A DNA stretch of 64,000 bases, from assembly GCA_965279515.1 (NCBI GenBank), contig CBDIID010000003.1:2464001-2528000 (forward strand). The letters are read 5' to 3'. Below the pieces are notes generated by a model. It was not told the origin of the DNA, made no database searches, and was given only the letters and a program-made list of their open reading frames with translations. Shown one piece after another: positions 1-19,387 of this stretch; the first letter of the stretch is position 1; the number at the start of each line of letters is the position of its first letter. This stretch comes from Turneriella sp. GTDB taxonomy: Bacteria; Spirochaetota; Leptospiria; Turneriellales; Turneriellaceae. A program made the position numbers and the translations under genes.

Positions 1-210
1 TCTGACCGTTTTGACTACCATGTGAGAACATCGACGCCCCCTGCTCTTATTATAGACCGGGCAGGGTGAAATCTGGCCAACTCTTTGTCAGCAAGAAAAC
101 GAAAACGTCTATATAGGCCAGCGAACTAAGTCACATATATTATTCTTACAAAATACATGCAATTTTTGAATATTGACTCCCAGTTGAAGATCGTATGAGA
201 CATAATTCCT

Positions 211-834
211 TTAATGAATAATTTCCATCTTGTCCTTTTGCATCATCTCCTGAATAGCCTTTATCTTTTTTTCTTCAAATTCCTTCTCCGTTACAATTTG
301 AATCTTTTTCCCAATTTGAACCTTAATGTCGTCCATAGAAAGCTTTTCCTTTTCAAAGGCTATCCGATTCTTTTCATAAAACTTTTCAATGGCCTTATTT
401 CCAGAGAATCTGACCTTGTTTGCTGCAAGAATCCGGGGATAATCCTGCTTCTTGTAGTGATAATACTCTTCTAAAACCTTTTCCATGCGTGGCCAAATAT
501 ACGCTTCCGCATCCGCATCCTTATAAATGCCCTCTTCATAGCCCCGCCGGATAATTTCACGCCGCAGGAGCTCCCGACGAAATACTTCTTCCCGGAGTGA
601 GGCAGGCATGTCCTGAACATCGCTAAACGTATAGACGCGCCCATCCACATTATGATAGGCAAAGCTCTTTCGCGAAATTGCCGCCTTGCCGAAAGCGCCC
701 AATTTGCCGTCTCCGCCCAATTTGGCCTGCTCCTTGACGTTTTTTCCCGCCATCTGATCGATCGGGGAACCGCAGCCGACAAAGCATGAGACAAAGAATA
801 CAAGAAGCTGAACATATCTGCTATTCTGTTTCAT
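211..834 (-). CDS. Lipoprotein, SurA/PrsA N-terminal-like helical chaperone lacking a rotamase domain
   Basis: Lipobox-like FVGC after a hydrophobic stretch; RRELLRREIIRRGYEEGIYKD and AIEKFYEKNR resemble SurA-N/PrsA helices; no parvulin motif. Confidence 0.55.
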   Translation of the reverse strand: MKQNSRYVQLLVFFVSCFVGCGSPIDQMAGKNVKEQAKLGGDGKLGAFGKAAISRKSFAYHNVDGRVYTFSDVQDMPASLREEVFRRELLRREIIRRGYEEGIYKDADAEAYIWPRMEKVLEEYYHYKKQDYPRILAANKVRFSGNKAIEKFYEKNRIAFEKEKLSMDDIKVQIGKKIQIVTEKEFEEKKIKAIQEMMQKDKMEIIH

Positions 835-840
835 ATTTCC

Positions 841-1611
841 TCAATAGCCAAAATCGGTATTTGAACTGACGGAGACTTTAGACACATTGCGTAACCGCTG
901 GAGCATCAGATTGCGTTGATTCTGAAGCTCTTGCGTAACGTTATTGCGCAGCATTTCATTTAGTGTGAAGCGGATGCTCTTCAATGCCGTATCCTTGTCG
1001 ATTTTTTTATCCGTGTACGCTTTTGCGTTTTTGATGTAGAATTGCATTACCTCTGCATCCGAAACCGAGGTTTTTATTTTTGCCCCGCTCTCTTTCAGTA
1101 GTTTCTGGAAATAGTAATCCGCCAGAGTTTTTCGAACAGATAACGAAAGCAGGTGCACTGCCGCGGGGTCACTAAGGATATTTTCCCGGAGAGCCTGATT
1201 TACGAGAATATCGATATTCAGGGATTCGCGCAGATAAAACTGTTTATCCTGGCTTTTCGGGTCGTTGGAGAAAATCCCCTGATTTTGCAATGTATCATAG
1301 AGCCTGTTCAGGTATGCCTTCGAATACTTAACATTGCCGATTTCGTAGTAAAAATCGGCAGCAGTCGCAGCACGCTTCTGGGCATCAAAGAAATGCTCCA
1401 GCAGCTTCTTCTCCTCTGGGCTATACAAAAATATGTAAAGATAGGGCGGGAGCATAATGAAGATAATGATGATTGCAAAAAAGCCCTGACTTATCCCTAC
1501 GAATTTTCGGAATTTAGATGCTGGCCTCGGCGGCTCTTCGCGGATAAAATCTTCGTCAGTCGGAGTATACTCTCCCTGCCCTGTGGTATTGCTGTTACTG
1601 CTATTGCTCAT
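841..1611 (-). CDS. Membrane-anchored SurA/PrsA/PpiD N-terminal-like protein without PPIase domain
   Basis: Single TM segment; LNIDILVNQALRENILSDP and SVSDAEVMQFYIKN match the SurA-N 'VSDEEI..YY..N' pattern; C-terminal LQRLRNVSKV. Confidence 0.6.
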   Translation of the reverse strand: MSNSSNSNTTGQGEYTPTDEDFIREEPPRPASKFRKFVGISQGFFAIIIIFIMLPPYLYIFLYSPEEKKLLEHFFDAQKRAATAADFYYEIGNVKYSKAYLNRLYDTLQNQGIFSNDPKSQDKQFYLRESLNIDILVNQALRENILSDPAAVHLLSLSVRKTLADYYFQKLLKESGAKIKTSVSDAEVMQFYIKNAKAYTDKKIDKDTALKSIRFTLNEMLRNNVTQELQNQRNLMLQRLRNVSKVSVSSNTDFGY

Positions 1612-1765
1612 GAAATAGGCTCCTTTTTGGTAGAGAACAAACTATTTATCCATTATCGACCGGCATTGTTGAAATTTCAAGTGGTATTCAAATTTGATTG
1701 ACTCGCCGATTTGCTCTGGATGACTTGCCTTTGTAGCTGAAAAAGCCTTTCCTTTAAGTACAGGT

Positions 1766-2638
1766 ATGCCCATGCAATTGATTAGATTTCTCTCCTTATC
1801 CGTGATAACCTCTGTTATGCTCGATGCTCAGGAAAAGAAGCCAGAAAAAAAGGCAGGAAAAGAAGGCGAGGGGTACGACTTCTTTCAGGAAGACGCGCTC
1901 AAAACGATGGAAAACGAGCTCGATACTTATGAAAAATCCCATGAAGACACCAAGGCCATCAAAGGAATGTTTATTCAGCGGAATTTTGACGAAAAGGAGA
2001 AAGATTCCGGCAAGAGAAAAGCACCTCCATTCTATCGAAATATTCTTGTTCGCAAAAAAGTAAAACTCCACCTCTCTGGTGGGGAAGTCATTCAGGGCGA
2101 AACCCCATTCAACGGGGATAAAATTACGATAATTTCTGAAAAAGACGGTAACAAGACAATCCATGAATTCCCTCGCTCTGAAATTACAACTCTTGAATTC
2201 TCCAAGTGGCAACCCTTCCGGGAAGCCACAGAACCGCTTCAGAACCTCGATTTTAAGGTTAAAAAGTATTATTACCTGCCTTCGGCGGCCAAACTCATTC
2301 TCGCGAGCGGGGCAAAAATCGAAGGGCAAATCGATCCGTTTGAAGTCTTGACCTTTCATATTCAAAGCGATACCGCCAAGTCGGCTTATGCAGCATATTT
2401 TTCGGACACCATGATTCCGACCAAAGATGCTAAAGACATCGCAGAATACCTGAAGGATAAGAATAAGCACAAAGCTGAGCTTGAATCCCTCGATTATAAG
2501 TGGCTGGTGGCAAATACCGCCGATAAGAAATACTACGAAAAAAATATGCCGAAACGGACGATTAAGAAGATAGAATTCATAGCGACCGTCGAGACTACCG
2601 GAAAAAATGAACCGCCCAAACCTTCACCGACCGAATAA
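1766..2638 (+). CDS. Secreted hypothetical protein
   Basis: 290-aa ORF with N-terminal signal peptide; divergent from the SurA-like pair. Confidence 0.7.
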   Translation: MPMQLIRFLSLSVITSVMLDAQEKKPEKKAGKEGEGYDFFQEDALKTMENELDTYEKSHEDTKAIKGMFIQRNFDEKEKDSGKRKAPPFYRNILVRKKVKLHLSGGEVIQGETPFNGDKITIISEKDGNKTIHEFPRSEITTLEFSKWQPFREATEPLQNLDFKVKKYYYLPSAAKLILASGAKIEGQIDPFEVLTFHIQSDTAKSAYAAYFSDTMIPTKDAKDIAEYLKDKNKHKAELESLDYKWLVANTADKKYYEKNMPKRTIKKIEFIATVETTGKNEPPKPSPTE

Positions 2639-3254
2639 CCTGAAACCTGCTTTATTCTTAGCGATAGCTTTTGTCAACCTCGCCCATGCGTGCAAGACTG
2701 AGGAGATTAAAGTGGTAAAGGTAAAAGAATCAGACCCTATTCCTTTGGCGACGGCGGCCGAAAATATGGTTTCGATCAGTACCGGAAGGGGTGTATTCTA
2801 CATTGATCGCTATGAGGCTTCTGAGCCGACACCAGGCGATTTTTTTTCCGTCCCAAACCAAACGCCAAAGACGAACGTAACGCAAGCTGAAGCGAAAACA
2901 ATCTGTGAGAGCCTCGGCAAACGGCTCTGCACTAGCCGCGAATGGGAGCTTGCATGCATCGGCGGTCATTTCTTGAAATACAGCTATGGCCATAAAAATA
3001 TTCCCGGCTTCTGCAACATCTCTGGCATACGCAATTCTCCTGCATACACAGGAGAATATACGAATTGTAAGTCGGATCTGGGGACCTTTGATCTGATCGG
3101 CAACGTCATGGAACTAACCGCAGACTTGTCGCCAGCGGGATTAGTCATTGCAAAGGGCGGTGACTACTCTACAAAAGAAGCGACGTGCTTTCAGGAATTT
3201 TTTGATCAACCTGTGGAAAAAAATGCAAAATTAGGATTTCGGTGCTGCAAATGA
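2607..3254 (+). CDS. FGE-sulfatase (SUMF1/EgtB/PvdO-type) domain lipoprotein
   Basis: FYIDRYEA, C..LGKRLCTSREWELAC, DLIGNVMEL, GFRCC motifs; lipobox LAHAC; alternative CTG start at 2640. Confidence 0.85.
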   Translation: MNRPNLHRPNNLKPALFLAIAFVNLAHACKTEEIKVVKVKESDPIPLATAAENMVSISTGRGVFYIDRYEASEPTPGDFFSVPNQTPKTNVTQAEAKTICESLGKRLCTSREWELACIGGHFLKYSYGHKNIPGFCNISGIRNSPAYTGEYTNCKSDLGTFDLIGNVMELTADLSPAGLVIAKGGDYSTKEATCFQEFFDQPVEKNAKLGFRCCK

Positions 3255-3796
3255 ATAAATATATCTTCTTTTTCGCTTCGTCATGCTTAATGTTAGAATG
3301 CAGTTCAGTAACTGTCACAAGTTATTACGACAAGAATACTTATAAAGACCCGGTTAAAGAAGTCGGCCTGGGATTTATCGAGGTCAGAAATCTCGATCTC
3401 AATACTTTTGTGAAAAAGAACCTTTACGATTCGATAAAATTCGAAATGGAAAAATTACGCTACCGCGTCAATGATCCCGAAACTATGAAAGCGGCTCGGA
3501 AGGCTTCAAATATAGAAAACGAAGAATTGCTCTCAGGAGCGGAAATATTTAGCCTGTCGAAAACCAGCAGTTTCGATCTTTACCTGCAAGGTTATGTGCA
3601 GGAGAACAAGGTCGGTGACGCTCTCTCCGAGGAACACCATTCTGTTATTGTCTTCTTTTTGTTTTCCCGCGATGGTAAAAAGGCGGGAGAAATACGGTAT
3701 TTCTCCAAAAAGAAAACTGTAGTTTCCGCCGAGAACCTTCAGGAAATGGCGCAAGGTGTAGTTCAGGAATTTCGCAAAACCGTACCGTCACTGTAA
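3251..3796 (+). CDS. Lipoprotein of unknown function (CsgG/LpoB-like alpha/beta fold possible)
   Basis: MNKYIFFFASSCLMLEC signal; ATGA overlap with upstream gene. Confidence 0.65.
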   Translation: MNKYIFFFASSCLMLECSSVTVTSYYDKNTYKDPVKEVGLGFIEVRNLDLNTFVKKNLYDSIKFEMEKLRYRVNDPETMKAARKASNIENEELLSGAEIFSLSKTSSFDLYLQGYVQENKVGDALSEEHHSVIVFFLFSRDGKKAGEIRYFSKKKTVVSAENLQEMAQGVVQEFRKTVPSL

Positions 3797-6700
3797 CCGT
3801 TTATCGAAGCGAAAGAAAGGCTTTCGCGGCAAAGAAATGATAATCTGTAGTATCGGAATCAGATATAGGGTTACCAGTAAAGAGAATGACGTTCCGACGA
3901 GAATGGTAAAAGCAAGCGGACGCCACAAATTACTCCCTTCGCCATAGTCGAAAATCAACGGTAACATACTCACGATAGTTACACTCGTCGTCATGGATAT
4001 CGGCCGAATACGTTCAAATACCGCAGCAAAAACAGCCCGAATAGGCTTAGCGCTCATTTTCTTACGCTTAATGGTACTCACCAACATGATGGCTCCGCTT
4101 ACCGAAATTCCGGCGGTTAGAATAAAGCCGATGTAGACCGAAACGTTCAGAGTTTTTCCCAGCAAGACTGTTACAATGAGGCTCATCATAATTGATGCAG
4201 GTACGGTGAGGATCACATACAGCGGCGTCGTGAAAGACTCGTAAAGGGCTCCCAGAAGAAAATAGATAAGTAATATTGCCGCCAAGGATGCAAACAGCAT
4301 CTCTCTTTGGCCCTCCAACTGCTTCTTATAACCCTCACCGAAATCATAATGGTAATTCTTTTCAAAGGGATATCGATTCAAGAATTCCTTAAGTCTTTGC
4401 CCTGCCGTACCCGTATCGATCCCGCTCAGTTTCGCGGTAATTGAGACAGTTTTTTGTTTATTCTTACGGTAAAGTTTAGTCTCTTCAGTTCCCTCCTGAA
4501 TCTTCAAAACGGAGGATATCGGCACGAAATCTTTAACATCGCCGGGAATATATAGTCCTTTTAGCTTTTCCGGCGTATTGATGAAGTTAGGGTCTATCTT
4601 CAGGCGAACGTCGACTTCCCGGTCTCCCTCATAGAATTTTGTGACCACAATTCCGTAAAGGGCGCCCCGGAACAGCTCGCCAATCCGCGCGTTCGTAAAT
4701 CCGAGACGCGATAGCTCAACATGTTTCGGCGAAATTTCCAGAGCCGGTTTCCCTTCACGAAATCTCAGAACGATCTCTCCAATACCGGGAATCGCCTGTT
4801 TTAGCTCCTGGGAGAGACTGCGTGCCAGCTTCTTGAGTTCCTTATGGTCATCGCCAAAAAGATCGATATCAATCTCTCTACTGTCCCCGCCATCGGAGCC
4901 TTGATTGAAGTAAACATAGGCGTTTTTAAATTGCCCGGTTATGCCTTTTAACTCAGACACAAAGGTATCGCTATCTAAAGACGATCTTAACTCCTTTTTC
5001 ATCCTAACAAATAAAGACGCATGCCACTTCTCAATCTTCGCCGTTATCTTTTCAACAGCAGGATGAAGGAGTAGTGCTTTTTCGATCTCCTTAACGGCTT
5101 TTTCCGTATGTTCGAGATTTATACCAGTATCCAATTCGACGCTTGCATTTATCTCACCCGAATCAATCGGATCGATAAATTCCTTTTTGGCAAAATAAAA
5201 GGCAACAATTCCGCCAGCGACTGTAAGCAAGAGCAGCAAAAGATTAAATCGAAAACTGCGACAACCGTTGAAAATTGCCTTCCGATACCGTGTTTTTAGA
5301 CTGATTGTTTTGTAACGATCGGCATATCGCAGGATGCCCGAAAGTTTCTCGCGTGTTTTCAAATACGGGCGAGAGGAGAAAATAAAGCTCCACATTCGTT
5401 CGAAAACCCCGTGAATTTTTTCTCCTAGAGATTGTGCTACACTCCCCTGTAATTGATGATAAAATGACGGAATAATTGTAAGGGATAAGAAAAGCGAAAC
5501 CAGTACAGACAACGAAAGCGAAATCGCCAGGTCTTTATACAAATCACGGGTATTCTGATTCGTGAAAAAGATCGGCAAAAAAACGATTACGATTGTGAGA
5601 GTTGAAGATAGAACTTCGAATTTGACTTCCGCAACTTTTTCCAGAATGCCGGCTGCCTTCGATAAGTTCTGCTGGTTTATATGAGCCATTTTTTCGACCA
5701 CAACGATAGCATTATCGATGATGAGGCCTACACCCAGCGCAAGCCCTGAAAGAGTCATCACATTGAGCTCTATCTTGAAAAAGAACAAAAATAAAAATGT
5801 CGTTAGAATCGACGCCGGTATAACGATAGACGTCAAAAAAGTGATGCTGGCTTGCCTCAGAAAGAGCCATAGAATTAAAGCCGCTATAATCGAACCCAGA
5901 ATGATTTCATTCGTAACGCGTTTGATCGCCTTTTCGATGAACTCTCCTTGATCATAATCCACCTCGATATTCAGGTCTGGAAAGTTCAGTTCCTTCAATA
6001 CGCGTCTACAGCCTGCCGTCACGGCAGCGGTGTTCGCGATCCCTGATTTCATTACATAAATTGAAACCTTTTCTGTCCCGTTCGAGCGCGAAATATTCTC
6101 CGGCTCTCTGAAATGGTCCTTGACATCTGCAACGCTCCGAAGAGGAATAATCTGGTCTTTGCCATAAGGTATGAGTGTCTCACCAATCTCTTTGACTGAT
6201 TTATACTTGAAATTCGCGATAATGTTCCGCGTCTGATTCAGTTCTCTTAAAGGTCCGGCCGGCATATATCTGTTATTTGCCTGCACCAAAGAGATGATGT
6301 CTGACAGAGAGATATTATACGAGATGAGCTTCAATGGATCGGCGAAAATTTGAATTTCACGAATAGTGCCACCGCCCACAAACACTTCGGAGACACCCTC
6401 TACTTTGGAAAAGTTATACTTAATTCTTTTATCAGCCAGACCGCGGATATATTTCAGATCATGACGCTTACTGCTCAACGATAAAATAAACACCGGCCGA
6501 TCAGACGGATCATAAGGCACAATATAGGGAGCTTCTACTTCCCGGGAAAAAGTCTGCCGAATCTGTTCGAGTTTTTCCTGCACTTCGATTATTTTGACTT
6601 TGAGATCGACATTGCTGCCAAAGATGACATTGATCTTCGACTCTCCATCCTCGGAAAGGGAGCTCAGCTGTTCTATTCCAGGCACCTCGGCGACTTTTTC

Positions 6701-6934
6701 CTCTATGGGCTTGGTCAGCAATTTTTCGATTTTTTCCGGTGCAACGCCGGGATAACGTGTGATGACCGACAGACCGGGCGTAACGGCATTCGGCAGAAGA
6801 CCGATTTTTAAGAACCCCGCAGCGTAAATACCCAAGAGTAATCCCGAGGCCAAAAGCATCGTGGCGGCAACGGGTTTCTGAAGAAAAAAAGCAGTAAGCC
6901 CCGAACCTGTCGAATCGCCGGGTTTATCCATCAT
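3788..6934 (-). CDS. RND family permease (AcrB/AcrD/AcrF-like)
   Basis: 1048 aa; YPGVAPEKIE, GLIIDNAIVVVE (TM4), ERIRPISMTT motifs. Confidence 0.95.
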   Translation of the reverse strand: MMDKPGDSTGSGLTAFFLQKPVAATMLLASGLLLGIYAAGFLKIGLLPNAVTPGLSVITRYPGVAPEKIEKLLTKPIEEKVAEVPGIEQLSSLSEDGESKINVIFGSNVDLKVKIIEVQEKLEQIRQTFSREVEAPYIVPYDPSDRPVFILSLSSKRHDLKYIRGLADKRIKYNFSKVEGVSEVFVGGGTIREIQIFADPLKLISYNISLSDIISLVQANNRYMPAGPLRELNQTRNIIANFKYKSVKEIGETLIPYGKDQIIPLRSVADVKDHFREPENISRSNGTEKVSIYVMKSGIANTAAVTAGCRRVLKELNFPDLNIEVDYDQGEFIEKAIKRVTNEIILGSIIAALILWLFLRQASITFLTSIVIPASILTTFLFLFFFKIELNVMTLSGLALGVGLIIDNAIVVVEKMAHINQQNLSKAAGILEKVAEVKFEVLSSTLTIVIVFLPIFFTNQNTRDLYKDLAISLSLSVLVSLFLSLTIIPSFYHQLQGSVAQSLGEKIHGVFERMWSFIFSSRPYLKTREKLSGILRYADRYKTISLKTRYRKAIFNGCRSFRFNLLLLLLTVAGGIVAFYFAKKEFIDPIDSGEINASVELDTGINLEHTEKAVKEIEKALLLHPAVEKITAKIEKWHASLFVRMKKELRSSLDSDTFVSELKGITGQFKNAYVYFNQGSDGGDSREIDIDLFGDDHKELKKLARSLSQELKQAIPGIGEIVLRFREGKPALEISPKHVELSRLGFTNARIGELFRGALYGIVVTKFYEGDREVDVRLKIDPNFINTPEKLKGLYIPGDVKDFVPISSVLKIQEGTEETKLYRKNKQKTVSITAKLSGIDTGTAGQRLKEFLNRYPFEKNYHYDFGEGYKKQLEGQREMLFASLAAILLIYFLLGALYESFTTPLYVILTVPASIMMSLIVTVLLGKTLNVSVYIGFILTAGISVSGAIMLVSTIKRKKMSAKPIRAVFAAVFERIRPISMTTSVTIVSMLPLIFDYGEGSNLWRPLAFTILVGTSFSLLVTLYLIPILQIIISLPRKPFFRFDKRLQ

Positions 6935-9900
6935 ACCTTGAAAAATTTTCGGCTAAATCTTTCCTTAAGTCTTTCAAATGCCAGATATAATGCTGGAAAG
7001 TATATGAGAGTCAGGAATGTAGAGATTGTGAGCCCTAGTACAACAACTATAGATAACGGGGCTTGAAATTCGCTACCTTCCCCTATTGCTAAAGCTGTCG
7101 GTAAATCGGCTACAATTGTCGTAAGCTGAGTCAAAACAATTGGCCGAATTCTCACCTCACCTGCTTTTTTGAGCATTGCGATTAGATCTCCCGAACTTGC
7201 GGAGACATGTTTTTCCTCCCGAAAATACAGAATGAATTCGTAGAGAACGATCGCAGTGCTAACAACAATTCCCACCAGCATGACGATTCCCATACCTGAA
7301 ATAACCGAAATCGAATTATTAGTAACGAAAAGCGCCAATGCGACACCGGGAATCATCAACGGAATGCTCAACGCAACGGAAATCGGCTGTAAGAATGATT
7401 CGAATTGCGCCGCGATGATCATGTAGATCAGAACAGACGAAAGAATAAAAGTGAGCAACAGTCCTTTAAGAGATTCCATTGTCTCATGATTTTTTTCCAG
7501 GAATTCAATTTCCAGTGAATCTCCGGGATTTTGGACTGCAACACCAGCCTGAACATCTGCTTGCTGCGTTTGATATTGATTCTTGAAATGCGCCAGCGCA
7601 TTCATTACCGCCAGTTTCTTACCATCAGCATACTTGATTTCGATAACTTCCATACGCCGGCTATCGCGACGCAATATCGTGCCACTACTTTCACCGGGTT
7701 CGAGCCGCGCTATTTGAGAGAGCTGTAGCATCGCCTTCGACGGGGCCTTTACATAAAGCGAAGAAATGGTATCGGGTGAAATCTTTCCCTCAAAGGCCGA
7801 ACTCATCTTTACCCGGACAGGCACCTCCCGATCGCCCTGCCTGAATTGCGTCGTAATATCGCCCTGTACGGCAGATTTCAGGGAGCGGCCGATTTGTACC
7901 GGCTGCAATCCAGTTGTCGCCATTTTTGTACGGTCGATCTGAATTTTCAATTCTGGTAATTTTCTGAGCGCGGTTGCATCTATACTGACAATAGTGCCGT
8001 CTTTGAACAGGGAGGAATCGCGCAGCGAGCTTAAGAAAAACTGAACCGCTTTCAGGTTAGCCCCGGCATTGTTCGAGCTGAACCGGGATTCAATTACGTT
8101 CTGCGTCTTACCAAGAACACTCTCCAGGACATCGCCGCGAGGCGAGAGAGAAAAGCTGATTCGTTGATTTTGGCCGATAAATCGGCTCAACTCCTCAATG
8201 AATTTTTCCGAACCTAACTCGGATCTATTGACCGAAAAATCCACTTCAATGTAGTTAGGCTTCTTCTTGCCCTTAACCATATCAACAAGGTTATCCTCAT
8301 CGTGACCGATGTGGAACACGCTCTGCGAAACCATTTTGTTCTTGGATAAATGTGCATGTATATTCCGGCACAGCTCAATACTTGATTCTATCCTCGTCCC
8401 AGGTTGCATTTCAATGAAACCCTCAACCCTGTAACGATCCGCTTTTGGGAAAAGCTCCTTTGGCAACATGTAGGCCATAATAATGCCGCCGGCGGTAATT
8501 ATAATTCCGATAGTGAATGTCTTCTTTAGGTTATGCAAAACAAGATCAAGCAATTTACTATACGAAGATTTCATTCCTTCAAGCTTTTTCTCGATGAACG
8601 CAGCATACCAATCCATGAACTTCCGATACCGTGTCGAAATACCGCTCAGACCTTGCGGCAGAGAAAAGCGAATCGGAATTTTCACACAGACGAGCATCGG
8701 AACCAATGTGAAGGAAAAAATCAGGGAAACGAGCAAGGCGACGGAAATAGTGATTGCTAATTCCTTAAAGATCTCCCCTGCGAGACTCTGTACAAACACA
8801 ATCGGAAAGAAAACAACAACGTTGCAAAGAGTCGCCGCGATATTTGAAGCCCTGACTTTTTGAACCCCTTCGTAGGCATTTTGAATCAATGTCCGCGTTG
8901 GATTCTCGACAATTTCCGTATCTATACTTTCCAATACGACGGTGCTCGAATCGACGACCATACCGACTGAAAGTGCCAAGCCCCCAATAGACATGACATT
9001 GATGGAAATGCCGGTCATATACATTACTACGAACGTTGCGATGATTGTGATGGGAATTGCAATACTGATGATGATTGCCGATTTGAAATTCCCAAGGAAC
9101 AAAAAGAGTAAAATGAAAGCAATGACTCCACCTACAATCGCGTTTGTTGTGACATTATCAATCGCATCGCGAATATAATTCGATTCGTCCGAAATGACCG
9201 TCATCTCCGCCGATCTGCCGAATCGACTATTCAAATCTTTGATTTTCGCCCGCAGGGCGTCTACGGCTTCTAACGTGTTTTTGCGGGGCTCTTTATATGC
9301 ATTCAGAATTATGGCTTCCTGATCATTAAATATCGTCGCTCCGAATTTCTCCCGGTAGGAATCCTGAATATCTGCAATAGACTTCAGGTAAATTGGCACG
9401 CCTTGCTCTGAAAGAAAAACAACGACCTCCCCGATATTTTGAACTTCCTTAAATTCTCCCATCATGCGAACTGTGTATTCTTTCTCTTGCTTATAAACGT
9501 TTCCGGCAGGGAAGTTGTAGTTAGCGGAGTTGATACTTTGGGCGAGATCGTCGAGGGTCAGGTTCGCCTGAAAGAGTTTTTGCGAATTGGCCATAATTTG
9601 AATTTCGCGTTTCTCCCCCCCCCTTATGATGATCGAGGCAGTTCCTTCTGACCGCTCTAATTCCGGTTTAAGGTTTTTTTCGATAAAACCACGAAGCTTT
9701 GGAAATGTAATGCCCACCGGCTTCACCAGTATACCCAGAACCGGTTGATCAGAAGGGTCGAATTTGAGGATTATCGAACGCTGAACATCCTGCGGCAAGG
9801 AACTCCTTAAAAGATCCAGTTTTTGCCGCATCGAAATCAGGGCCAGGTTAGCGTCGTACCCCCAGGATAGGGTAACGGAGATAATGCTCAAGCCCTCTTC

Positions 9901-10146: not shown

Positions 10147-10152
10147 CGTAGG

Positions 10153-11679: not shown

Positions 11680-13154
11680 GGATTACTCCTGAAAAACAAA
11701 GAATAATCGCTTTGCAAATAATTATTGCTCCCGTCTTTTACTCCGGTATTGGTTCCGATGATTTTCAATAAATAGACGTTATTGCCCAATTGTCCAAGGG
11801 ACAAGCTTAGAACGGTGCGCGGGACATTCCAGCTAAACTGAGTCATTGTACCTACCAAGGCGGAATCATTCCCCAGAAGTCTGGTAATCGAAATATTATC
11901 AGGCACAGATTCCACTAACATGGGAGCAGAAAAGGTAATCACAACTATACAATTCCAGGGTGGCACGACAGCACCGTAAGATAATGTAAATATGGGTATC
12001 AAAACGGTATTCGTGATTGCCGTGCCCGGCGACGGGCAACCAGCCCCCTGAACCACTGAAGCGATAGTCACGTATTGTGAATTTGGACCGTTGACTACAA
12101 AGCTTGTGGCAACCTGCGATAGTAAAGGATTGCCAAAAGCATCTTTTGCATTTTCTGTTACGGTAAGATAATATTCCCGCCCAGGCGTCAGCAAACCTGT
12201 TGGTTGAAACGTAAAACCGGCAAAACTGCCTAGCCAACTGAAGGAACCAGCGATCGTATTGCCAAAATGTCCGTCTACAATACTAAAGGAGCTTTGTGAA
12301 GGACTATAATCCATAGCTTCGTCGAAAGTGACAACAAAGCCTTCGTTTTTCTCAACAGTTGTTGCAGCAGGGCCGGGAAAGATCGCTGTTCCACCCGTTG
12401 TCTGTACCGTTAAAACCTGAGGCTTAACAAAATCTGTACCCGCCTTAAACCGGAAAACATGATCTGACACCATGGGCATGCCACGGGCATCCTTGGCAGT
12501 TTTCGCAATCGTGACCGCGTATTGTTGATTAAAGGTTAATCCCTGAAAGGGTGTGTACGTGAGCACGGTATTTCCTACGCTCCAGGTAAACAGACCGGTA
12601 ACAGAGGGACTTAACTGAAAAGCAGCTTCTGTTTCAGTAATGGACATGGGTCTACTAAACGTGATGTCGATTGGAGTATTTAATGCCACGCTCATATTCA
12701 AGTCTATGGGATTAGTCGTCACGACTCGTGGCGGAGTTAGATCCGTGCCAGCATAAAAATGGGCGAGAAATGTCGTTAGATATTTGCTTTCGTCCTTTGC
12801 CTGAGCAGAAGGCAATAATTTTACCGTGTATCTTCCCCCATATTCAAGATCGCCTTCGAGCTGGTAGTACATCGTATTCCCGCTCCACACAAAAGCACCC
12901 TTCGGAATCGGCGAATCAGACGTCAGTGAGAACGCATTCTGCGTCAGTTCATGATTCATCTCCTTGTCGAACTTCAGATATATATTCGGCCGGACGTCGG
13001 TAAATCCGGTTCTTTCGGCAGGATAAGAATCAATGACCAGAGGTGATTCCAGGGATTTTAGCGCCGCGCAGGTGAGAAGAAATCCCGTGACCATGCCCGC
13101 GCAAAGCCATCTGAAAACGGATCGGGTTAAATTTCCTTTCGACTTCGTCAGCAT
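11676..13154 (-). CDS. Big_5 (SbsA-type Ig-like) repeat lipoprotein
   Basis: Lipobox-like FLLTC; repeated FDKEM/FSRPM/FDEAM...AKDA.G units. Confidence 0.85.
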   Translation of the reverse strand: MLTKSKGNLTRSVFRWLCAGMVTGFLLTCAALKSLESPLVIDSYPAERTGFTDVRPNIYLKFDKEMNHELTQNAFSLTSDSPIPKGAFVWSGNTMYYQLEGDLEYGGRYTVKLLPSAQAKDESKYLTTFLAHFYAGTDLTPPRVVTTNPIDLNMSVALNTPIDITFSRPMSITETEAAFQLSPSVTGLFTWSVGNTVLTYTPFQGLTFNQQYAVTIAKTAKDARGMPMVSDHVFRFKAGTDFVKPQVLTVQTTGGTAIFPGPAATTVEKNEGFVVTFDEAMDYSPSQSSFSIVDGHFGNTIAGSFSWLGSFAGFTFQPTGLLTPGREYYLTVTENAKDAFGNPLLSQVATSFVVNGPNSQYVTIASVVQGAGCPSPGTAITNTVLIPIFTLSYGAVVPPWNCIVVITFSAPMLVESVPDNISITRLLGNDSALVGTMTQFSWNVPRTVLSLSLGQLGNNVYLLKIIGTNTGVKDGSNNYLQSDYSLFFRSNP

Positions 13155-13156
13155 AG

Positions 13157-14788
13157 CTACTCCTCGCGCACCTTTTGCCGCGTTCTTTTCGGTTTTTTCT
13201 TGATAATCTGTGTCTTGCTTAAGTCGGTTTCTACGCCTTCCTCAATTGATTCTCCCGAGGGGTTATCCACCTGCGGAGATTCTGGCACTGATTCAGCTGC
13301 CGCTGGGCGCGCCTTAGATAGCTCAGCTACTATCTTTTTCCAGCGGTCTTCGCTATAGACTTTCGTCCCATCGTTTAATGCTTCTACGTTAGAGGTTGCA
13401 ACAATATCCTGATCAGACAAACCTTGCAGGATTTCATACTCATCACTATATCTGTTGCCGATCACGATTTCCTTCTTGAAAGCTGTCCCATTCTTTAATA
13501 CGAAACAGTAGCCATTTTTCTCTAGTTTTCCGGGTTTTCGATCCGTGATGATTATTGCTGTTTCAGGGATCGCCATAGCATTACCCTTCGACGCGAGTAC
13601 GATTTGAGTTCTGACAAACATACCCGGCCTAAAAATATGTTCAGGATTGCTGGCCTTAATCTTCACTTCGGCCGTCCGCGTCTGTGGCGCAAGGACAGGG
13701 GATATGACCGTTACCGTGCCGGTGAAAAATTTACCAGGTAAGGCATCCACGCCAAATTTAACCTCAAGGCCCTTCTTTATTTGGAAAAGATTCTCCTCGC
13801 TCACTGAAGTAACCAAATAAACGGGATTTGTACCAACGATTACGAAGACCGGGGTATCCGGTTTAACCATTTCGCCAATATCCACCTGACGAGCTGCAAT
13901 AACACCGTCGATAGGAGTGCGAATCGTTGCTTCCTTCAGAAGTAGCGCGGAGATTTTTTCCTGGGCTTCCGCAGATTTGATACTGGCTTCAGCAATGTTG
14001 AGTTCCGACCGCTCGATGGTCGTATTTAACTCCATAACAGATTTTTTCCATTCGGCTTTTGTTTTCGGCCGCTCGTATCCCGCTTTAAGGAGGTCTTCGA
14101 CCCGATAACCGACAGCGTTCATCTTTTGATCCAACATCAAACCATAGTATCGCGATTTTGTATTCATAATCTCGACTTGCTGGGCATTGTACTCTAAAGG
14201 TGTAACCCCATCAATATCGAGCAAAGTCTTCTTCGCTTTTTCATTAATCAAATCGTTATCGTATTTCGCCTTAACGGCCAAGACATCGATCTTCTCCTTC
14301 TCCATCGCCCAAACACGCTTTTCGACGTTACGCTTCGCAACATTATACTTTTCCTTGGATAGCTTCAACTGGGCTGTTGCCGAATTTAGGCTATTCTGAG
14401 CCTGAAGATGCTCCATCTCGAGGCGCTGCTTGTCCAATAGCGCAATGACCTCCCCTTTGGTCACAAAATCACCTACATCTTTCGTAAAAGAAGCGAGTCT
14501 CGCGTTCGCGAGGGATGTTATCTGCGCTTTCTGAATCTGGCTTACAGTCCCGGGGGTATCGAGAATATTTACGAGATTCTTTCGGTATATTTTCAGATAC
14601 TTGGTATCGCTGAAAATTGGCTCGTCGACCCGATATGTCTTAGGTTTCTTATAAACCAGAAAAGTCAGCAGGATCGCCGGCACAGCGAGTAGGGCCACGT
14701 AAATCAAGAGACGCAATTTGGGCGGCAGCTTTCTCAGCAGATTGTTGAGAATTGCCAGGGGCTTAAAGATTATTTTCAGGATATTCAT
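13157..14788 (-). CDS. RND periplasmic adaptor (membrane fusion protein) with long coiled-coil hairpin
   Basis: N-terminal TM; lipoyl halves VGDFVTKGEVIALLD / TIRTPIDGVIAAR; FRPGMF beta-barrel motif. Confidence 0.92.
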   Translation of the reverse strand: MNILKIIFKPLAILNNLLRKLPPKLRLLIYVALLAVPAILLTFLVYKKPKTYRVDEPIFSDTKYLKIYRKNLVNILDTPGTVSQIQKAQITSLANARLASFTKDVGDFVTKGEVIALLDKQRLEMEHLQAQNSLNSATAQLKLSKEKYNVAKRNVEKRVWAMEKEKIDVLAVKAKYDNDLINEKAKKTLLDIDGVTPLEYNAQQVEIMNTKSRYYGLMLDQKMNAVGYRVEDLLKAGYERPKTKAEWKKSVMELNTTIERSELNIAEASIKSAEAQEKISALLLKEATIRTPIDGVIAARQVDIGEMVKPDTPVFVIVGTNPVYLVTSVSEENLFQIKKGLEVKFGVDALPGKFFTGTVTVISPVLAPQTRTAEVKIKASNPEHIFRPGMFVRTQIVLASKGNAMAIPETAIIITDRKPGKLEKNGYCFVLKNGTAFKKEIVIGNRYSDEYEILQGLSDQDIVATSNVEALNDGTKVYSEDRWKKIVAELSKARPAAAESVPESPQVDNPSGESIEEGVETDLSKTQIIKKKPKRTRQKVREE

Positions 14789-14789
14789 A

Positions 14790-16211
14790 TCAGTTATTAT
14801 AATTGATTAGTCCCAAATAGTCTGCCTTTACTCCCATGGTAGTTTCAAGCACACCGATTGAAATCAGATAATCGGCTTTGGCTTTTATAAAGTTTTGTGC
14901 AACGCCAAGGTATTCGATCTCGGCAAGCATTAAGTCAACACGCTTCAATTGGCCTAATCTTACCTTTGCGGTTTGAATCTGAATTCTCTCAGACAGTACT
15001 TTCTCAGCCTCTTCTGCGATTTTGAAGATTTCGAAGTTGTGCTCTGCAGAGATCAAAGCAGTTTTCACTTCTATCGCCAGCTGGTCTGGTAGCCTGTCCC
15101 TTTCGAAGAGGCCTCGTTTTAGATTCATCCCTGATTCGATCTTCTGTCTACGGTAAGAAATATCCTCGAAAACACCAATCGACGTGTCCGTACTGTATCC
15201 TTGCGTATATCCGTTTGTCGCGACATTGCTTCGCGGCGTTTCCCGAACCATGTTGCCAAACATGTTTGAAGTCACAATAACGCCTACCCCCCATCCGTTT
15301 TCCTGCGGAAAAAACCGGTCTCCCGACAGATTGTAATTACCCGTTAGGGAAATACGAGGATAGAAATAACTTTCAGCAATTTCATACTCCTTTCTGAGGC
15401 GCATTGTATCAACACGTCTTTGTTCAACTTCTGGCCTGTTCGACATGGTAATAGCGTACAGATCTTCGAATTTTCTATCGATTTCCCTGAAGGTAAGCTT
15501 GTGTAAGGTTTCTTTATCCAGAACCAGTTCGACGCTTGGATTCAGGCGAAGCCCCTGCTTGAAGGTTAAATCCAGGGTTTCGTAATCACGCTTCTCTTTA
15601 ATCAAACTTGTTACTATCTGCTTATATTTGGAAACCACATCGAGGTAATCAATTTTTGTCAGAGTACCGACTTCAAATTCTTTCTGACTGAGCTTGGCCT
15701 GAAGTTCTGATCGTTCGGCGGAGCGCTGTCGGGATTCAACCGTGTAGATCGCCTGCAACAGGCGGAAAAAATTACTTCTGGTATCGAGAATGACCTTATT
15801 TCGCAACTGCCGGTATTTATAGTTGGCAAGAGTTACGTCCAATTTACTCAAATCGTATGCCAATGACATTCTGCCGCCGTCATAGACGGGCTGCGTAACA
15901 TCGACTCGCATTTGATGGCTGCGCGTATCAAAATCACGAATTCTAACTTGCTCGTTATTCAGGTACGAGAATCGCAATTGGGGCAAAAACGCCCGCCATT
16001 TTTCGATAATATTTGCCTGCATCATGCTTCGCTCAGAACTCTGAAGCTGAAGATCAATGCTGTTAGTTTGGGCTAATTGTTCCGCTATCTTCAAATCCAT
16101 GGGCATACGATTCACATCTTGAGTGAATAGCATGCTTGCCGAAAGCAGATAACCCCCTATGTAAAGGGGCCATCGGCTGCAAAAATCTAATTTGTCCGGA
16201 CTATTGGCCAA
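14790..16211 (-). CDS. TolC family outer membrane channel
   Basis: Two OEP repeats (AFLPQL...QPVYDGG; NRPEV...YFYPRISLTG). Confidence 0.9.
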   Translation of the reverse strand: MANSPDKLDFCSRWPLYIGGYLLSASMLFTQDVNRMPMDLKIAEQLAQTNSIDLQLQSSERSMMQANIIEKWRAFLPQLRFSYLNNEQVRIRDFDTRSHQMRVDVTQPVYDGGRMSLAYDLSKLDVTLANYKYRQLRNKVILDTRSNFFRLLQAIYTVESRQRSAERSELQAKLSQKEFEVGTLTKIDYLDVVSKYKQIVTSLIKEKRDYETLDLTFKQGLRLNPSVELVLDKETLHKLTFREIDRKFEDLYAITMSNRPEVEQRRVDTMRLRKEYEIAESYFYPRISLTGNYNLSGDRFFPQENGWGVGVIVTSNMFGNMVRETPRSNVATNGYTQGYSTDTSIGVFEDISYRRQKIESGMNLKRGLFERDRLPDQLAIEVKTALISAEHNFEIFKIAEEAEKVLSERIQIQTAKVRLGQLKRVDLMLAEIEYLGVAQNFIKAKADYLISIGVLETTMGVKADYLGLINYNN

Positions 16212-16235
16212 GGATCTGATCTCCGTCTGCTAATT

Positions 16236-16853
16236 TCATTTATCCCGGACTGCTTCCAATACCAGACGTCTTGCCTTGATTTTTTCGGCCCGCTCCGTAA
16301 GCTTATGTTGTACCAATAGGGCTTCGTAGCCTCGGTAGGCCGTCGCCAGTTCCAGTTCGGACATTAGAACTTTTTGATACTCAACCATAGCCTGGCGTAA
16401 GTTACCTGTCTTTGCGTAAAACCTTGCCAACTCGACATGCATGGCAAAGTCTTCAGGATGATTATTCAAACCATGCAGCAGATAACTTTCAGCCTGAGCT
16501 TCTGTTTTCTTTTCCGTCATCGCAATGCGCGCAAGCCAAAGCAACGCCCCTTGATGACCAGCTTCTTTTTTGAGAATAGCCGAGAATACCTGCTCGCTTT
16601 CTTTATACTTTTTGGTGTAGAAGAAAATTTTTCCCTTTAGCACTTGCGCTGGCAAATAGGCCGCATATGCTTTTATGATTTTTTCAGCACTTTCCAGCGA
16701 ACTATCAAACTTTCTCTCGATAAAATCCTGGTTTGCCTGGAAAAGATCTTTCTCGATAGCCGGTGGAATTTTTTGAACCGTCTTTTCTCCACAATAACTG
16801 AAGATAAGAATGACCAACAGTGTGATGATTTGCGAAATTCCGATTTTTTTCAT
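16236..16853 (-). CDS. Tetratricopeptide repeat lipoprotein
   Basis: Lipobox IFSYC; several TPR-like helices (KGKIFFY, LWLARIA, ELARFYA). Confidence 0.8.
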   Translation of the reverse strand: MKKIGISQIITLLVILIFSYCGEKTVQKIPPAIEKDLFQANQDFIERKFDSSLESAEKIIKAYAAYLPAQVLKGKIFFYTKKYKESEQVFSAILKKEAGHQGALLWLARIAMTEKKTEAQAESYLLHGLNNHPEDFAMHVELARFYAKTGNLRQAMVEYQKVLMSELELATAYRGYEALLVQHKLTERAEKIKARRLVLEAVRDK

Positions 16854-17842
16854 TTAAGCCTCTCTTCGCTACTCAAGCGAATTCTTCCGATGATTTTCTC
16901 TCCTGATGTCCTAATTCGATTCAAAACCGATTTTATGATGGCATCTAACCTGAGAGAGAAAAGCAGATAAATCATGTACATCAGCGGAATGAGATTCGTC
17001 ACTAGACCGAATTTAGCTGCTGGCAACAGACTCTTCTGAAGTTGGCTATCCGCATCCGAAATCAGACTATTCAGCATTTTGGCGGAGATTCCGGATGGTG
17101 ATTGCGCATAGGCCAGATTCAAAGTTTCTTTGAGATTTTGTGAGGTCCGCCTCTGGTATGCGCTGATGTCGACAACACTCCAAGTCGCCGAGGCTACCAT
17201 TATGAGATAAAACCCAGCCACTAAATGTGCAGCCCATCTCCATCCCGTAATACTAATAATGCCAAGTGCCGCGCTGCAAACCACCAGCGTGATACTGACA
17301 ACTCGCGCAACCTCCCCTTTGAAGATGCGCGCAAATAGATCCACAGCGGGAATTTTGGCAAATATCATCGGGATACTCGTTACCGCCGCCGTAACCAAGA
17401 GAATTCCGATGAGTTTCTGAAGTGGTCTGGATGTATCAAATCGCATGGGCACTAAATTGGGCGAGCTGTCAACGATGGCATCTGACAGATGGGCTGATCT
17501 TTTATTGAAGAAAAGATACAAAAACGGGACAAATAGGAGGAAAACGCTAATCCATTGGGATATGAATCTCAGCACCTCTTCAAACCAAGTCAACCGTTTA
17601 CCTTTGGTGTTTTTCCGAATGTTATAACCGAACAACCACATACCCATTGTTTGACCTTTAAGAAACAGTCTCGATGCAAAATAGGTGAGAAACACTCCAC
17701 CCAGGAAGGACAAGAGGATAACAGCCTTATTTGTGAGCCATGAAGCCGGGATGAAAATTGAAGCGACATCTAACAATAACCGGAAGATGGCAAGGTCTGT
17801 TATCGTCGATAAAAACCGGATCCAGGGTGAAACATTCTGCAT
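16850..17842 (-). CDS. RDD family membrane protein with extra C-terminal TM domain
   Basis: SPWIRFLSTITD, GQTMGMWLFG, R..HLSD RDD motifs. Confidence 0.8.
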   Translation of the reverse strand: MQNVSPWIRFLSTITDLAIFRLLLDVASIFIPASWLTNKAVILLSFLGGVFLTYFASRLFLKGQTMGMWLFGYNIRKNTKGKRLTWFEEVLRFISQWISVFLLFVPFLYLFFNKRSAHLSDAIVDSSPNLVPMRFDTSRPLQKLIGILLVTAAVTSIPMIFAKIPAVDLFARIFKGEVARVVSITLVVCSAALGIISITGWRWAAHLVAGFYLIMVASATWSVVDISAYQRRTSQNLKETLNLAYAQSPSGISAKMLNSLISDADSQLQKSLLPAAKFGLVTNLIPLMYMIYLLFSLRLDAIIKSVLNRIRTSGEKIIGRIRLSSEERLK

Positions 17843-17998
17843 GATTTAGTGGCTTTTCCTTGGCGTTATCCAATTCTAATATCTCCTGTCCAATATCGAC
17901 GACAGAGAAGCCTAACTTAAAAATCCGCGAGGACAGAAAAGAACAATGTGTATGCTAACCCAATTAACTATAAGTCAGATGGCGATCGACTTAAGGGG

Positions 17999-19387
17999 TC
18001 AGGATTTGAATTCAAATTCTCGGATGAGATGATCTAAGGCAGGATCATGTGACAATAATGCGGCCTGATCGGATAAAACCTCTATTAGGTCATCGCAAAT
18101 CAATTGGGTTATTCTTTCCAAAGATATGGCCTGAGATATGGGGTTATCGCTGTCTATGCTTGCTTCCTCTACTTCAAAAGCTACGCTTGAAATCCGATGA
18201 TTATTGATTAGGATTGCGGTTGATTCTGGTTGAAGGCGGCTATTAAATTCGATAGAGATTTCTTCGATAATCGTGCCTGTCGCCTGTATGGCCTTCATCC
18301 TACTTAAATTTACCGCAATACCCATGGCAACTTCATTCCCTACAAAGTAATCGTTCCAGAGTGTCCTGCCTAACTGCAGCTTAACGCGATTTTCAAGTTC
18401 AATCCGCTTCTCTTCCCTTTGGATGAACTCGGCATGTATTTCCAGGTGACCCGCATCCGTAGGCTCAACTACGTCTGATAAAAAGCCGGCTGCAAAGACA
18501 GCGCCACCGAATGCTACCAAGAATGCATTGGGAAAACCCGGAAAAAAAGATAGAACAACAAAAAAAGCGCCAATCAACATCGCCTTTCGGCGGTCTTCAA
18601 AGAGCATTTCCCGGAAATTCAGCTTGGCAACCCTTTTGGTGGCAAGTTGCGAGAGCCATTCTCTGATCGCAAAAAGATTGAGTGCTATCCCAGGCAAGAG
18701 ACATAAGACAGTGCTCACTATCAAAAGAGCCGAGGTTCTGATGGATTTCCCTAATGAATCCGGTGTAAAATGATCGCGATTCCATACTCCAAGAATCAAT
18801 GCGAAACACATAAATAAAGGGAATACATACAATTCGATCTTCGCTGTGCTTAGGAAGAACAAAGGAATTTTAGAACCTTGGCGAAAATCAGATTTCGATA
18901 AAATCTTTTCATCGGATTCTTCCAATTTCTCTATTTGAGGAAAATTTAATTCATTCCTGACCTGGATTTGCACATGAATATCATTTACAACTCGCTTAAT
19001 GGTCGCAAGGGATAAAAATCCAAGAGTTAGGTAAGTTGTGACCGCAATGGTCAGGTTTGATTCAAGGGTTTGGAAGTAAAAAAAGTCCGTTATTTTCCGA
19101 ATAATCTGACCGTCAAAGTTGGGGCCTGCAAGGCCGATCTTACGAACCGATGCGCCTAACATCATCATGCGCAATGTAAGTGTAAAAAAGCCAGCTACCG
19201 TCAGCCAGTAATAACGTGTATTTGGTTGAATTATCAGACTTGCAAGAGTAAAGATAACGGTACTAAAAACCGCAAAAAACAACAAGAAATCGAAGACCAC
19301 CGAAGGCATTGGGAGCAATAACATCATCGCTGATGGGAAAAAGCACAAGAAATAAGAGAATCTTTTTTGATCGGCCCAAGAATGCAT
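17999..19387 (-). CDS. Degenerate, truncated FlhA/SctV (FHIPEP family) paralog
   Basis: MMLLLPMPSVVFD, TLTLRMMMLGASVRKI, FDGQIIR, FFPGFPN, KLQLG, RLQPESTAILIN align by eye with FlhA; FHIPEP signature and distal cytoplasmic domains missing. Confidence 0.7.
   Translation of the reverse strand: MHSWADQKRFSYFLCFFPSAMMLLLPMPSVVFDFLLFFAVFSTVIFTLASLIIQPNTRYYWLTVAGFFTLTLRMMMLGASVRKIGLAGPNFDGQIIRKITDFFYFQTLESNLTIAVTTYLTLGFLSLATIKRVVNDIHVQIQVRNELNFPQIEKLEESDEKILSKSDFRQGSKIPLFFLSTAKIELYVFPLFMCFALILGVWNRDHFTPDSLGKSIRTSALLIVSTVLCLLPGIALNLFAIREWLSQLATKRVAKLNFREMLFEDRRKAMLIGAFFVVLSFFPGFPNAFLVAFGGAVFAAGFLSDVVEPTDAGHLEIHAEFIQREEKRIELENRVKLQLGRTLWNDYFVGNEVAMGIAVNLSRMKAIQATGTIIEEISIEFNSRLQPESTAILINNHRISSVAFEVEEASIDSDNPISQAISLERITQLICDDLIEVLSDQAALLSHDPALDHLIREFEFKS

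Follow-up and report, generated by a model that had tools for sequence, protein, structure and literature searches.

Polymorphic toxins, as characterised in the accessible part of PMC3482391, possess a constant N-terminus and swappable tips and are accompanied by a downstream immunity-like gene and orphan cassettes, with PT-HINT domains and the Ntox8–Imm16 pair among their recurrent components. The export routes named in that part of the source include secretion systems (SS) of type II (T2SS/Sec), V (T5SS), VI (T6SS) and VII (T7SS), PVC, TcdB/TcaC, PrsW and MuF, and neither TolC nor Leptospira is mentioned in that text. The present work deals with a block of genes of Turneriella sp. at positions 211..19387 of a 64-kb stretch of contig CBDIID010000003.1 (the whole stretch is referred to below as the window; coordinates are window positions, and those of the giant genes are given as G000:C3). 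In this block, two permeases of the resistance–nodulation–division (RND) type (R1 and R2), a periplasmic adaptor, a TolC-family channel and two immunoglobulin (Ig)-repeat lipoproteins are encoded close to the gene of a protein of 4,790 amino acids (aa). This module is real, it is spread over the phylum Spirochaetota, and no description of it was found in the literature searched, most subscription journals and bioRxiv supplements being outside the coverage of the search. Judging from their sequences, the giant proteins are very probably polymorphic toxins, and this claim is firmer than that concerning their export: the block appears, with moderate confidence, to be a dedicated RND–adaptor–TolC machine exporting the adjacent giants in a second step after Sec.

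Several described machines invite comparison. Type I secretion (HlyBD–TolC, SiiE) shares with the block the TolC exit, a long-hairpin adaptor and a giant cargo encoded beside the machine; according to the available portion of PMC6272769, a 595-kDa protein leaves the cell by a type I system. At the same time, the block carries an RND heteromer instead of an ATP-binding cassette (ABC) transporter, along with Ig and tetratricopeptide repeat (TPR) lipoproteins, and its putative cargo bears an N-terminal Sec-type signal and lacks RTX repeats. Assignment to type I secretion is hence rejected: no ABC transporter family was found among the open reading frames (ORFs) of the block with Pfam and NCBIfam, and the giant, with its Sec-type start, contains 0 GGxGxD motifs. 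In MacAB–TolC, as described in the accessible part of PMC8277102, the heat-stable enterotoxin II is Sec-dependent and exits through the pump; here, too, Sec would act first and a tripartite TolC pump would then take over from the periplasm. However, MacAB is ABC-driven and its cargo measures ~10 kDa at most, whereas the block comprises RND permeases and the proteins in question have 2,000–5,000 aa.

MdtABC–TolC resembles the block in having two different RND subunits in tandem and one adaptor. Still, R1 and R2 group apart from its subunits and lack D408 and K940, the lipoyl halves of the adaptor are 173 residues apart as compared to 82, and the block has a TolC, an Ig pair and a TPR protein of its own with no BaeSR-type regulator adjoining. 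SecDF is a proton-driven protein of the RND fold which pulls polypeptides; it acts at the Sec channel and has neither an adaptor nor a TolC. Its likeness to the block would lie in the handling of proteins by a member of the RND superfamily, and R1 and R2 match SecDF models weakly.

In Leptospira, the large protein LA_3725 carries a pre-toxin HINT domain (PMC4751964); it is identical with LIC10502, and LA3733/LIC10496 is TolC-like (PMC2387172, PMC9586249), as stated in the available parts of these sources. The TIGR04388 (Lepto_longest) and LA_3725 proteins are very long and have pre-toxin HINT, and no export machine is assigned to them in the accessible text of PMC4751964 and PMC2387172.

A conserved module of Spirochaetota

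On the minus strand of the window, the genes of an RDD-family membrane protein (16850..17842; PF06271), which belongs to the same operon here, a TPR lipoprotein (16236..16853), a dedicated TolC-family outer-membrane channel (14790..16211; PF02321), the periplasmic adaptor (13157..14788; TIGR01730 above cut-off), the Ig-repeat (Big_5) lipoproteins A (11676..13154) and B (10153..11679), each with three PF13205 stretches, and the RND permeases R1 (6931..10146) and R2 (3788..6934), both matching PF00873, follow one another with intergenic gaps of −4, 24, 1, 2, −4, 6 and −4 nucleotides (nt). An earlier note on this DNA had read these genes, their families and their spacing in the same way, and it had seen no TetR/MarR regulator; indeed, no regulator family was detected among the 14 block ORFs scanned (Pfam, NCBIfam). 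It had omitted three plus-strand genes (1766-3796) and the 4,790-aa ORF. One of the former (3242..3796) encodes a near-core lipoprotein of the LIC10494 family (NF033169, 73.6 bits at a cut-off of 70).

Matches to the Big_5 proteins were found in 127 of the 401 genomes of the phylum, often as tandem pairs. Around such pairs, 20 loci of 40 kb were fetched; preference was given to long contigs and to a wide range of families. Two RND genes and a TolC were present in all 20 loci and an adaptor was labelled in 18; in the other two (G370 and G057), the ORF filter had retained an overlapping, longer frame in its stead. Thus, the synteny across Spirochaetota which the earlier note had proposed to look for does exist for the Big_5 pair, the twin RND, TolC and the adaptor. 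For the accessory genes, it extends to the TPR gene, a near-core part (15/20 loci), and SurA-like genes are encountered in 5/20 loci only (and in G324). The LIC10494-family gene was found in 11 of these loci and a giant gene in 10. The order and strand of the module genes vary between loci; in the Treponema-like loci picked by their giant, the whole module lies directly upstream of it in three of five.

The Big_5 proteins are hallmarked by an invariant lipobox Cys and are always paired or fused, in a fixed number. These lipoproteins, considered as possible cargo in the earlier note, therefore look like fixed parts of the machine. The Ig-pair profile also weakly matches Ig-like domains of TssM and of mycobacterial L,D-transpeptidases in PDB (E 2e-5 to 1e-3).

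In Leptospira, a subtype occurs in which a single Ig protein of 1,216–1,227 aa replaces the pair (four loci of the genome set and six named or binned records). L. borgpetersenii, L. weilii, L. alstonii and L. noguchii are among its named carriers. Of the giants in its vicinity, three exceed the TIGR04388 cut-off. From the family name of NF033169 and the adjacency of the locus tags, we infer that the LIC10494–LIC10502 region of L. interrogans represents this system. In loci of the fused-Ig subtype (L085-L094, L157-L162), a 225–243-aa gene follows R2; the genomes G061 and G114 carry both subtypes.

Both permeases of Turneriella keep the equivalents of AcrB D407, R971 and T978 and are devoid of those of D408 and K940. 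Since D407 is retained in 20/20 R1 and 17/21 R2 sequences, an energy-dead second subunit was rejected as a general rule. In a FastTree phylogeny (51 rows labelled by best match, with few outgroups), R1 and R2 each formed a side of their own, with support values of 88 and 97; AcrB, MdtB/C, CusA and the six other RND proteins of the genome fell outside both. Their best NCBIfam matches were multidrug RND models, at 533–557 bits against a cut-off of 1250. Affiliation with the HAE1 drug pumps is contradicted by the broken relay D407-D408-K940-R971-T978, the separate position in the tree and these sub-cut-off scores; affiliation with the HME metal pumps (CusA/CzcA) is contradicted by the tree, where R1 and R2 do not group with CusA, and by scores below the TIGR00914 cut-off. 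The R2 of genome G245 is strongly degenerate, and a shorter 1,929-aa giant-like gene is located elsewhere in that genome.

The spacing of the lipoyl halves amounts to 173 residues in all 39 complete module adaptors (a further one, truncated by the end of its contig, was excluded), also where no giant was found. The corresponding values are 82 for AcrA and MdtA, 59 for CusB and 152 for two adaptors from outside the module. A length that is doubled and does not vary speaks for a set geometry. Overall, the view of the earlier note that this is not an ordinary drug-efflux operon is supported.

Giant proteins and their variable tips

The large cargo gene which, as the earlier note had surmised, might lie past the left edge of the window is represented by a likely candidate on the minus strand: the first giant of this genome (4,790 aa; G000:C3:2449659-2464031) begins at window base 31, with its first codons at 1..31, follows the last SurA-like gene after 179 nt and extends 14.3 kb to the left. 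Its start resembles a signal peptide, with a hydrophobic segment at residues 12–41. No Pfam or NCBIfam family was found for the whole protein, and no NCBIfam family for 12 related giants. The end of the gene is overlapped by 11 nt by that of a 375-aa exported SH3 protein (C3:2448542-2449669), a candidate immunity gene. The tip is predicted to be papain-like (C39/C70 clan; Atlas 0.93–0.94, 10/10 family matches in one clan), a call derived from language-model features only; no homologue of this tip was found among longer proteins, and the single-sequence fold of the last 399 aa (predicted local distance difference test, pLDDT, 49) was not used.

The second giant (4,840 aa; G000:C3:2673650-2688172) resides 210 kb away, ~9 kb downstream of the true flhA and with no module adjoining. 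It ends in DUF7587, a candidate ADP-ribosyltransferase-like domain judging by eye from its motifs, and a 114-aa gene overlaps it by 4 nt. The two giants are 81–95% alike over the first 1,350 columns of their alignment and ~20% over the last 500 residues. Both are followed by near-identical DUF3024 gene pairs (L001:179-1051; L074:1621-3829), and L074 also holds two copies of an 88–89-aa gene; the shared pairs and the duplicated gene suggest duplication or exchange of whole tails.

The head of the giants is predicted to be a conserved, all-helical N-terminal domain with conserved tryptophans (pLDDT 81, predicted template modelling score 0.47). It yielded no Foldseek match at E 0.001, no PDB sequence match and no usable Atlas hit, so no mechanism is derivable from the fold. 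The stalk is helical and free of Pfam repeat families, which distinguishes it from the polymorphic toxin systems of PMC3482391 as far as its accessible part goes. The Turneriella giant is a distant relative of TIGR04388 (A5 profile, E 1e-9 to 1e-15) and falls outside that family, at 23.2 bits against the 45-bit cut-off; it has no HINT match.

A constant head and a variable tip are also seen in a larger set of 97 giants (matches of at least 2,500 aa selected by their head, some of which may be cut short): all of them form 1 group when compared by residues 250–450, and 57 groups result from their last 200 residues. At 28 of 31 complete giant ends, a co-oriented gene of 125–346 aa is found at −38 to +68 nt; of the other three ends, one coincides with the edge of a contig, another lacks a gene of this kind, and behind the third there is a gene of 777 aa. 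By eye, most of the small downstream genes start with a signal-like stretch. A Pfam search of 46 tips returned PT-HINT (4), M23 (3), Ntox8 (1), C39 (1), a weak NlpC/P60 (1) and DUF7587 (1). A DUF2750 gene stands behind the Ntox8 tip and an Imm-NTF2-2 gene behind another tip; the accessible part of PMC3482391 lists Ntox8 with Imm16/DUF2750 as a cognate pair. Orphan cassettes with HINT, M74 or M23 were detected in G310, G267, G037, G370, G323 and G212, and none at the Turneriella window locus. Hence, all the sequence features expected of polymorphic toxins were found, i.e., the constant head, the variable tip, toxin domains in a minority of tips, the downstream gene and orphan cassettes. A point to be set against this interpretation is that, for 35 of the 46 tips, Pfam gave no match to a family of toxins, peptidases or HINT domains. 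From other work, a toxin tip specific to Leptospiraceae, PT8, has been validated according to the available part of Nachmias et al. (10.1101/2021.10.19.465003).

Further observations concern the genes around the giants. PF25302 (NADase_transloc F5/8 type C domain) is matched by three downstream proteins (L131, L135, L136), and another four belong to the LRR and three to the MORN type; together, these are candidates for new immunity families. The tips of L127, L133, L135 and L136 share an H-x(8-13)-GC motif which, by eye, may indicate an L,D-transpeptidase-like toxin; they have no Pfam match. In several genomes, a fast-evolving exported gene of 220–550 aa overlaps or abuts the start of the giant (L038:17084-17986, L050:9389-10186, L037:12663-13466, L059:12395-13276, L089:3188-3853); the proteins are similar only within pairs of kin, and no counterpart is present in the Turneriella block.

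Proposed export of the giants and its alternatives

The RND profiles failed to split divergent members from ordinary pumps, and therefore the Ig-pair profile was chosen as the marker of the module; at a threshold of 1e-25, it matches 164 of the 401 genomes. The profile of the giant head (first 500 aa; E 1e-6) matches 96 of the 401 genomes, as well as 423 clusters at 50% identity; of the 96, 94 also match the Ig-pair profile. Among the 237 genomes without an Ig-pair match, only two possess a giant, both being fragmented. In family f4 (75 genomes), a strong giant (below 1e-70) is found in 17 of 18 genomes with a strong Ig pair (below 1e-100), in three subgroups, and in 0 of the 57 others, as counted from tables. 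Where both positions were available (67 genomes), module and giant were situated within 20 kb of each other in 37.

It could be argued that the module is an efflux or envelope-lipid pump of the heteromeric MdtABC type, with Ig and TPR accessories, and that the giants merely share its island. Such a pump would account for the 14 giant-less genomes among the 69 with a strong Ig-pair match, and the best, if far sub-cut-off, matches of the permeases are indeed multidrug RND models. However, giants without the module are limited to the two genomes mentioned, over many families with reshuffled gene order, R1 and R2 do not group with MdtB/C, no regulator is present, and the adaptor is twice as long; this explanation is considered improbable.

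Export of the giants by the module is likely: for a giant which bears a signal and is linked to a TolC conduit of its own, two-step export is the most straightforward interpretation. In the proposed mechanism, Sec would take the giant across the inner membrane by means of its signal peptide, and the SurA-N-like, TPR and LIC10494-family lipoproteins would keep it in an export-competent state. The R1–R2 heteromer, presumably proton-driven through D407, R971 and T978, would then engage the helical head and feed the chain through the long-hairpin adaptor into the dedicated TolC; by analogy with type I cargo, the long-helix shape predicted for the head could pass the TolC channel. The two Ig lipoproteins may surround the channel as a fixed scaffold or retain the protein on the cell surface as it emerges. 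Finally, the tip would attack neighbouring bacteria, either as a cell-wall peptidase countered by an exported immunity protein, as predicted for the Turneriella locus, or as a nuclease or an ADP-ribosyltransferase-like enzyme countered by a cytoplasmic immunity protein, with HINT-mediated release where this domain is present.

A number of findings weigh against this model. Module and giant are not within 20 kb of each other in 30 of the 67 genomes (on different contigs in 29 and 90 kb apart in one). The 14 giant-less genomes with a strong module belong here as well: 9 of 10 retested remained without a giant with a wider profile, TIGR04388 was absent in the five tested, and G164, G004 and G273 have intact module flanks and no giant. 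In all, a giant is missing from 70 of the genomes that exceed the loose Ig threshold, and the marker is thus not specific at this level; the Ig-pair profile also matches unrelated Big_5 proteins down to about 1e-33. Moreover, the co-occurrence counts treat kin genomes as independent, which they are not. As for the permeases, R2 has lost D407 in G139, G186, G150 and G245 (4/21), and D408 and K940 are missing in both subunits, which makes the energisation uncertain; the entry tunnels of known RND proteins suit small molecules. The GC content at third codon positions of the giant gene (0.59) is nearer to that of the genome (0.60–0.71 in six control genes) than to that of the module (0.42–0.53), hence giant and module may differ in history. 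Part of the missing giants may be accounted for by the data themselves: the giant-less genomes are drafts of 60–730 contigs, several of their module contigs end just past the module, and 9 of 40 fetched giant ends ran off their contigs, which makes the loss of giants in assembly plausible.

Alternatively, the module could serve the giants without carrying them. The giant would then exit by type II secretion, in vesicles or upon lysis, and the RND–TolC part would anchor or mature it or export a small partner or lipid which it needs. All the data on co-occurrence and synteny fit this possibility equally well; the Sec-type start of the giant, unlike that of type I cargo, also conforms to it, as do the small substrates of known RND pumps and the ~10-kDa limit of MacB-type cargo. 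On the other hand, a dedicated TolC and a doubled adaptor of invariant length point to a sealed conduit, no second outer-membrane export gene was recognised among the block ORFs (Pfam, NCBIfam), and no biosynthetic genes for small substrates recur in the loci examined. Such an auxiliary role seems unlikely, yet it is the most probable of the rivals.

The giant-less genomes bear on one more scenario, in which the TolC–RND assembly is the route by which the toxin tip enters related target cells, i.e., a kin receptor. Precedents exist, as TolC serves the entry of colicin E1 and AcrB that of one toxin of contact-dependent inhibition. Module-only genomes would then be targets, and tips aimed at the cytoplasm (Ntox8, DUF7587) would be explained. 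But a pure entry port would be lost from toxin-less cells, the module often forms one operon with the giant, and periplasmic holdases fit export better; we regard this scenario as scarcely probable.

If the export model holds true, a mover of giant proteins would emerge from RND–TolC pumps, which are regarded as small-molecule exporters, and would represent a new secretion class bridging efflux pumps, SecDF and type I secretion. The full proposal, for which the chances are about even, has three parts: a proton-driven RND heteromer, a long fixed adaptor, a dedicated TolC and an Ig scaffold would thread Sec-exported toxins of 250–550 kDa out of the periplasm; this system would be the principal weapon against other bacteria in roughly a fifth to a quarter of spirochaetes; and its fused-Ig subtype would provide pathogenic Leptospira with the export route so far missing for their TIGR04388 giants. 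It would define a competition system of spirochaetes rich in toxin and immunity domains that are as yet untyped (57 tip groups in 97 proteins). It also offers a testable job for orphan Leptospira genes, namely the TIGR04388 giants and the LIC10494 lipoprotein family, and a candidate job for the TolC LIC10496, by locus-tag adjacency only. If only the interpretation of the giants as polymorphic toxins holds, this would be a system of a known kind and not a new secretion class.

Other genes of the low-GC island

The block has a GC content of 0.444 as compared to 0.530 in the rest of the window, the lowest among 965 sliding 19-kb windows of the chromosome (mean 0.530), so its AT-richness claimed earlier is fully borne out. 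A giant was found in one of 34 genomes of Turneriella's order, and four congeners gave no full-length Ig-pair match; taken with the low-GC island, this means that module and giant occur together here and were not found in the relatives searched.

The island includes an FlhA-like gene (17999..19387, minus strand), 156 nt upstream of the RDD gene. Its 462-aa product is 19–20% identical to the 694-aa FlhA of the same genome and scores 35 bits at an FlhA model cut-off of 772. The label given in the earlier note is justified by an FHIPEP match (E 6e-13), and only in part, since no more than a section of FHIPEP (residues 255–409) is matched. The membrane part is kept; the conserved motif of the cytoplasmic loop is gone, as is most of the C-terminal domain. 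A shortened protein without the conserved loop or a full ring-forming C-domain was rejected as an FlhA/SctV export gate and appears to be a degenerate FlhA derivative. It has two full-length orthologues among assembly proteins (64% and 32%); the gene was found neither in 33 other genomes of the order nor in a metagenome scan.

For the RDD and FlhA-like genes, as well as for the plus-strand genes of a 290-aa exported protein without a family (1766..2638) and of an FGE-sulfatase-domain protein recognised by Pfam (2607..3254), a search of other module loci gave no orthologue. Hence, the RDD and FlhA-like genes, counted as parts of the system in the earlier note, are not core parts; the FlhA-like gene is assigned to the island and not to the conserved module. 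This bears on the function proposed in that note, taken here as a machine which exports or anchors either a surface polymer or the Big_5 lipoproteins and in which the FlhA-like protein acts as the gate. The constant presence of Big_5 genes within the module, the location of the FlhA-like gene on the same low-GC island and its two full-length orthologues speak for it. Yet the putative gate has lost its loop and most of its C-terminal domain and is missing, like RDD, from the other module loci, the Big_5 proteins keep their lipobox Cys and fixed number, and no polymer synthase was seen. This function is thus very improbable; the likely cargo is the polymorphic-toxin-like giant rather than a polymer.

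Two SurA-like genes occupy the left end of the block on the minus strand. The first (211..834) encodes a SurA/PrsA N-domain-like lipoprotein, and the second (841..1611) a SurA-N-like protein with an N-terminal membrane segment (TIGR02925, E 0.007); both are candidates for accessory holdases. Individually, neither matches a Pfam family, and SurA_N_3 is matched weakly by one of eight family members. With a profile built from the eight orthologues, a match to HP_0175 of H. pylori (5ez1, E 3.8e-5) was obtained in its N-terminal chaperone region, and the alignment skips the parvulin peptidyl-prolyl isomerase domain. The SurA-like label of the earlier note may therefore be retained at the level of the family profile, for proteins without the isomerase domain.

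The counts of promoters and terminators were at chance level, and no tRNA was found at the island edges in the three stretches scanned. At the right edge of the island, where the GC content is back to the genome level, a gene of an Lsa36-family surface protein (NF047512) is located at 19724-20860 on the plus strand.

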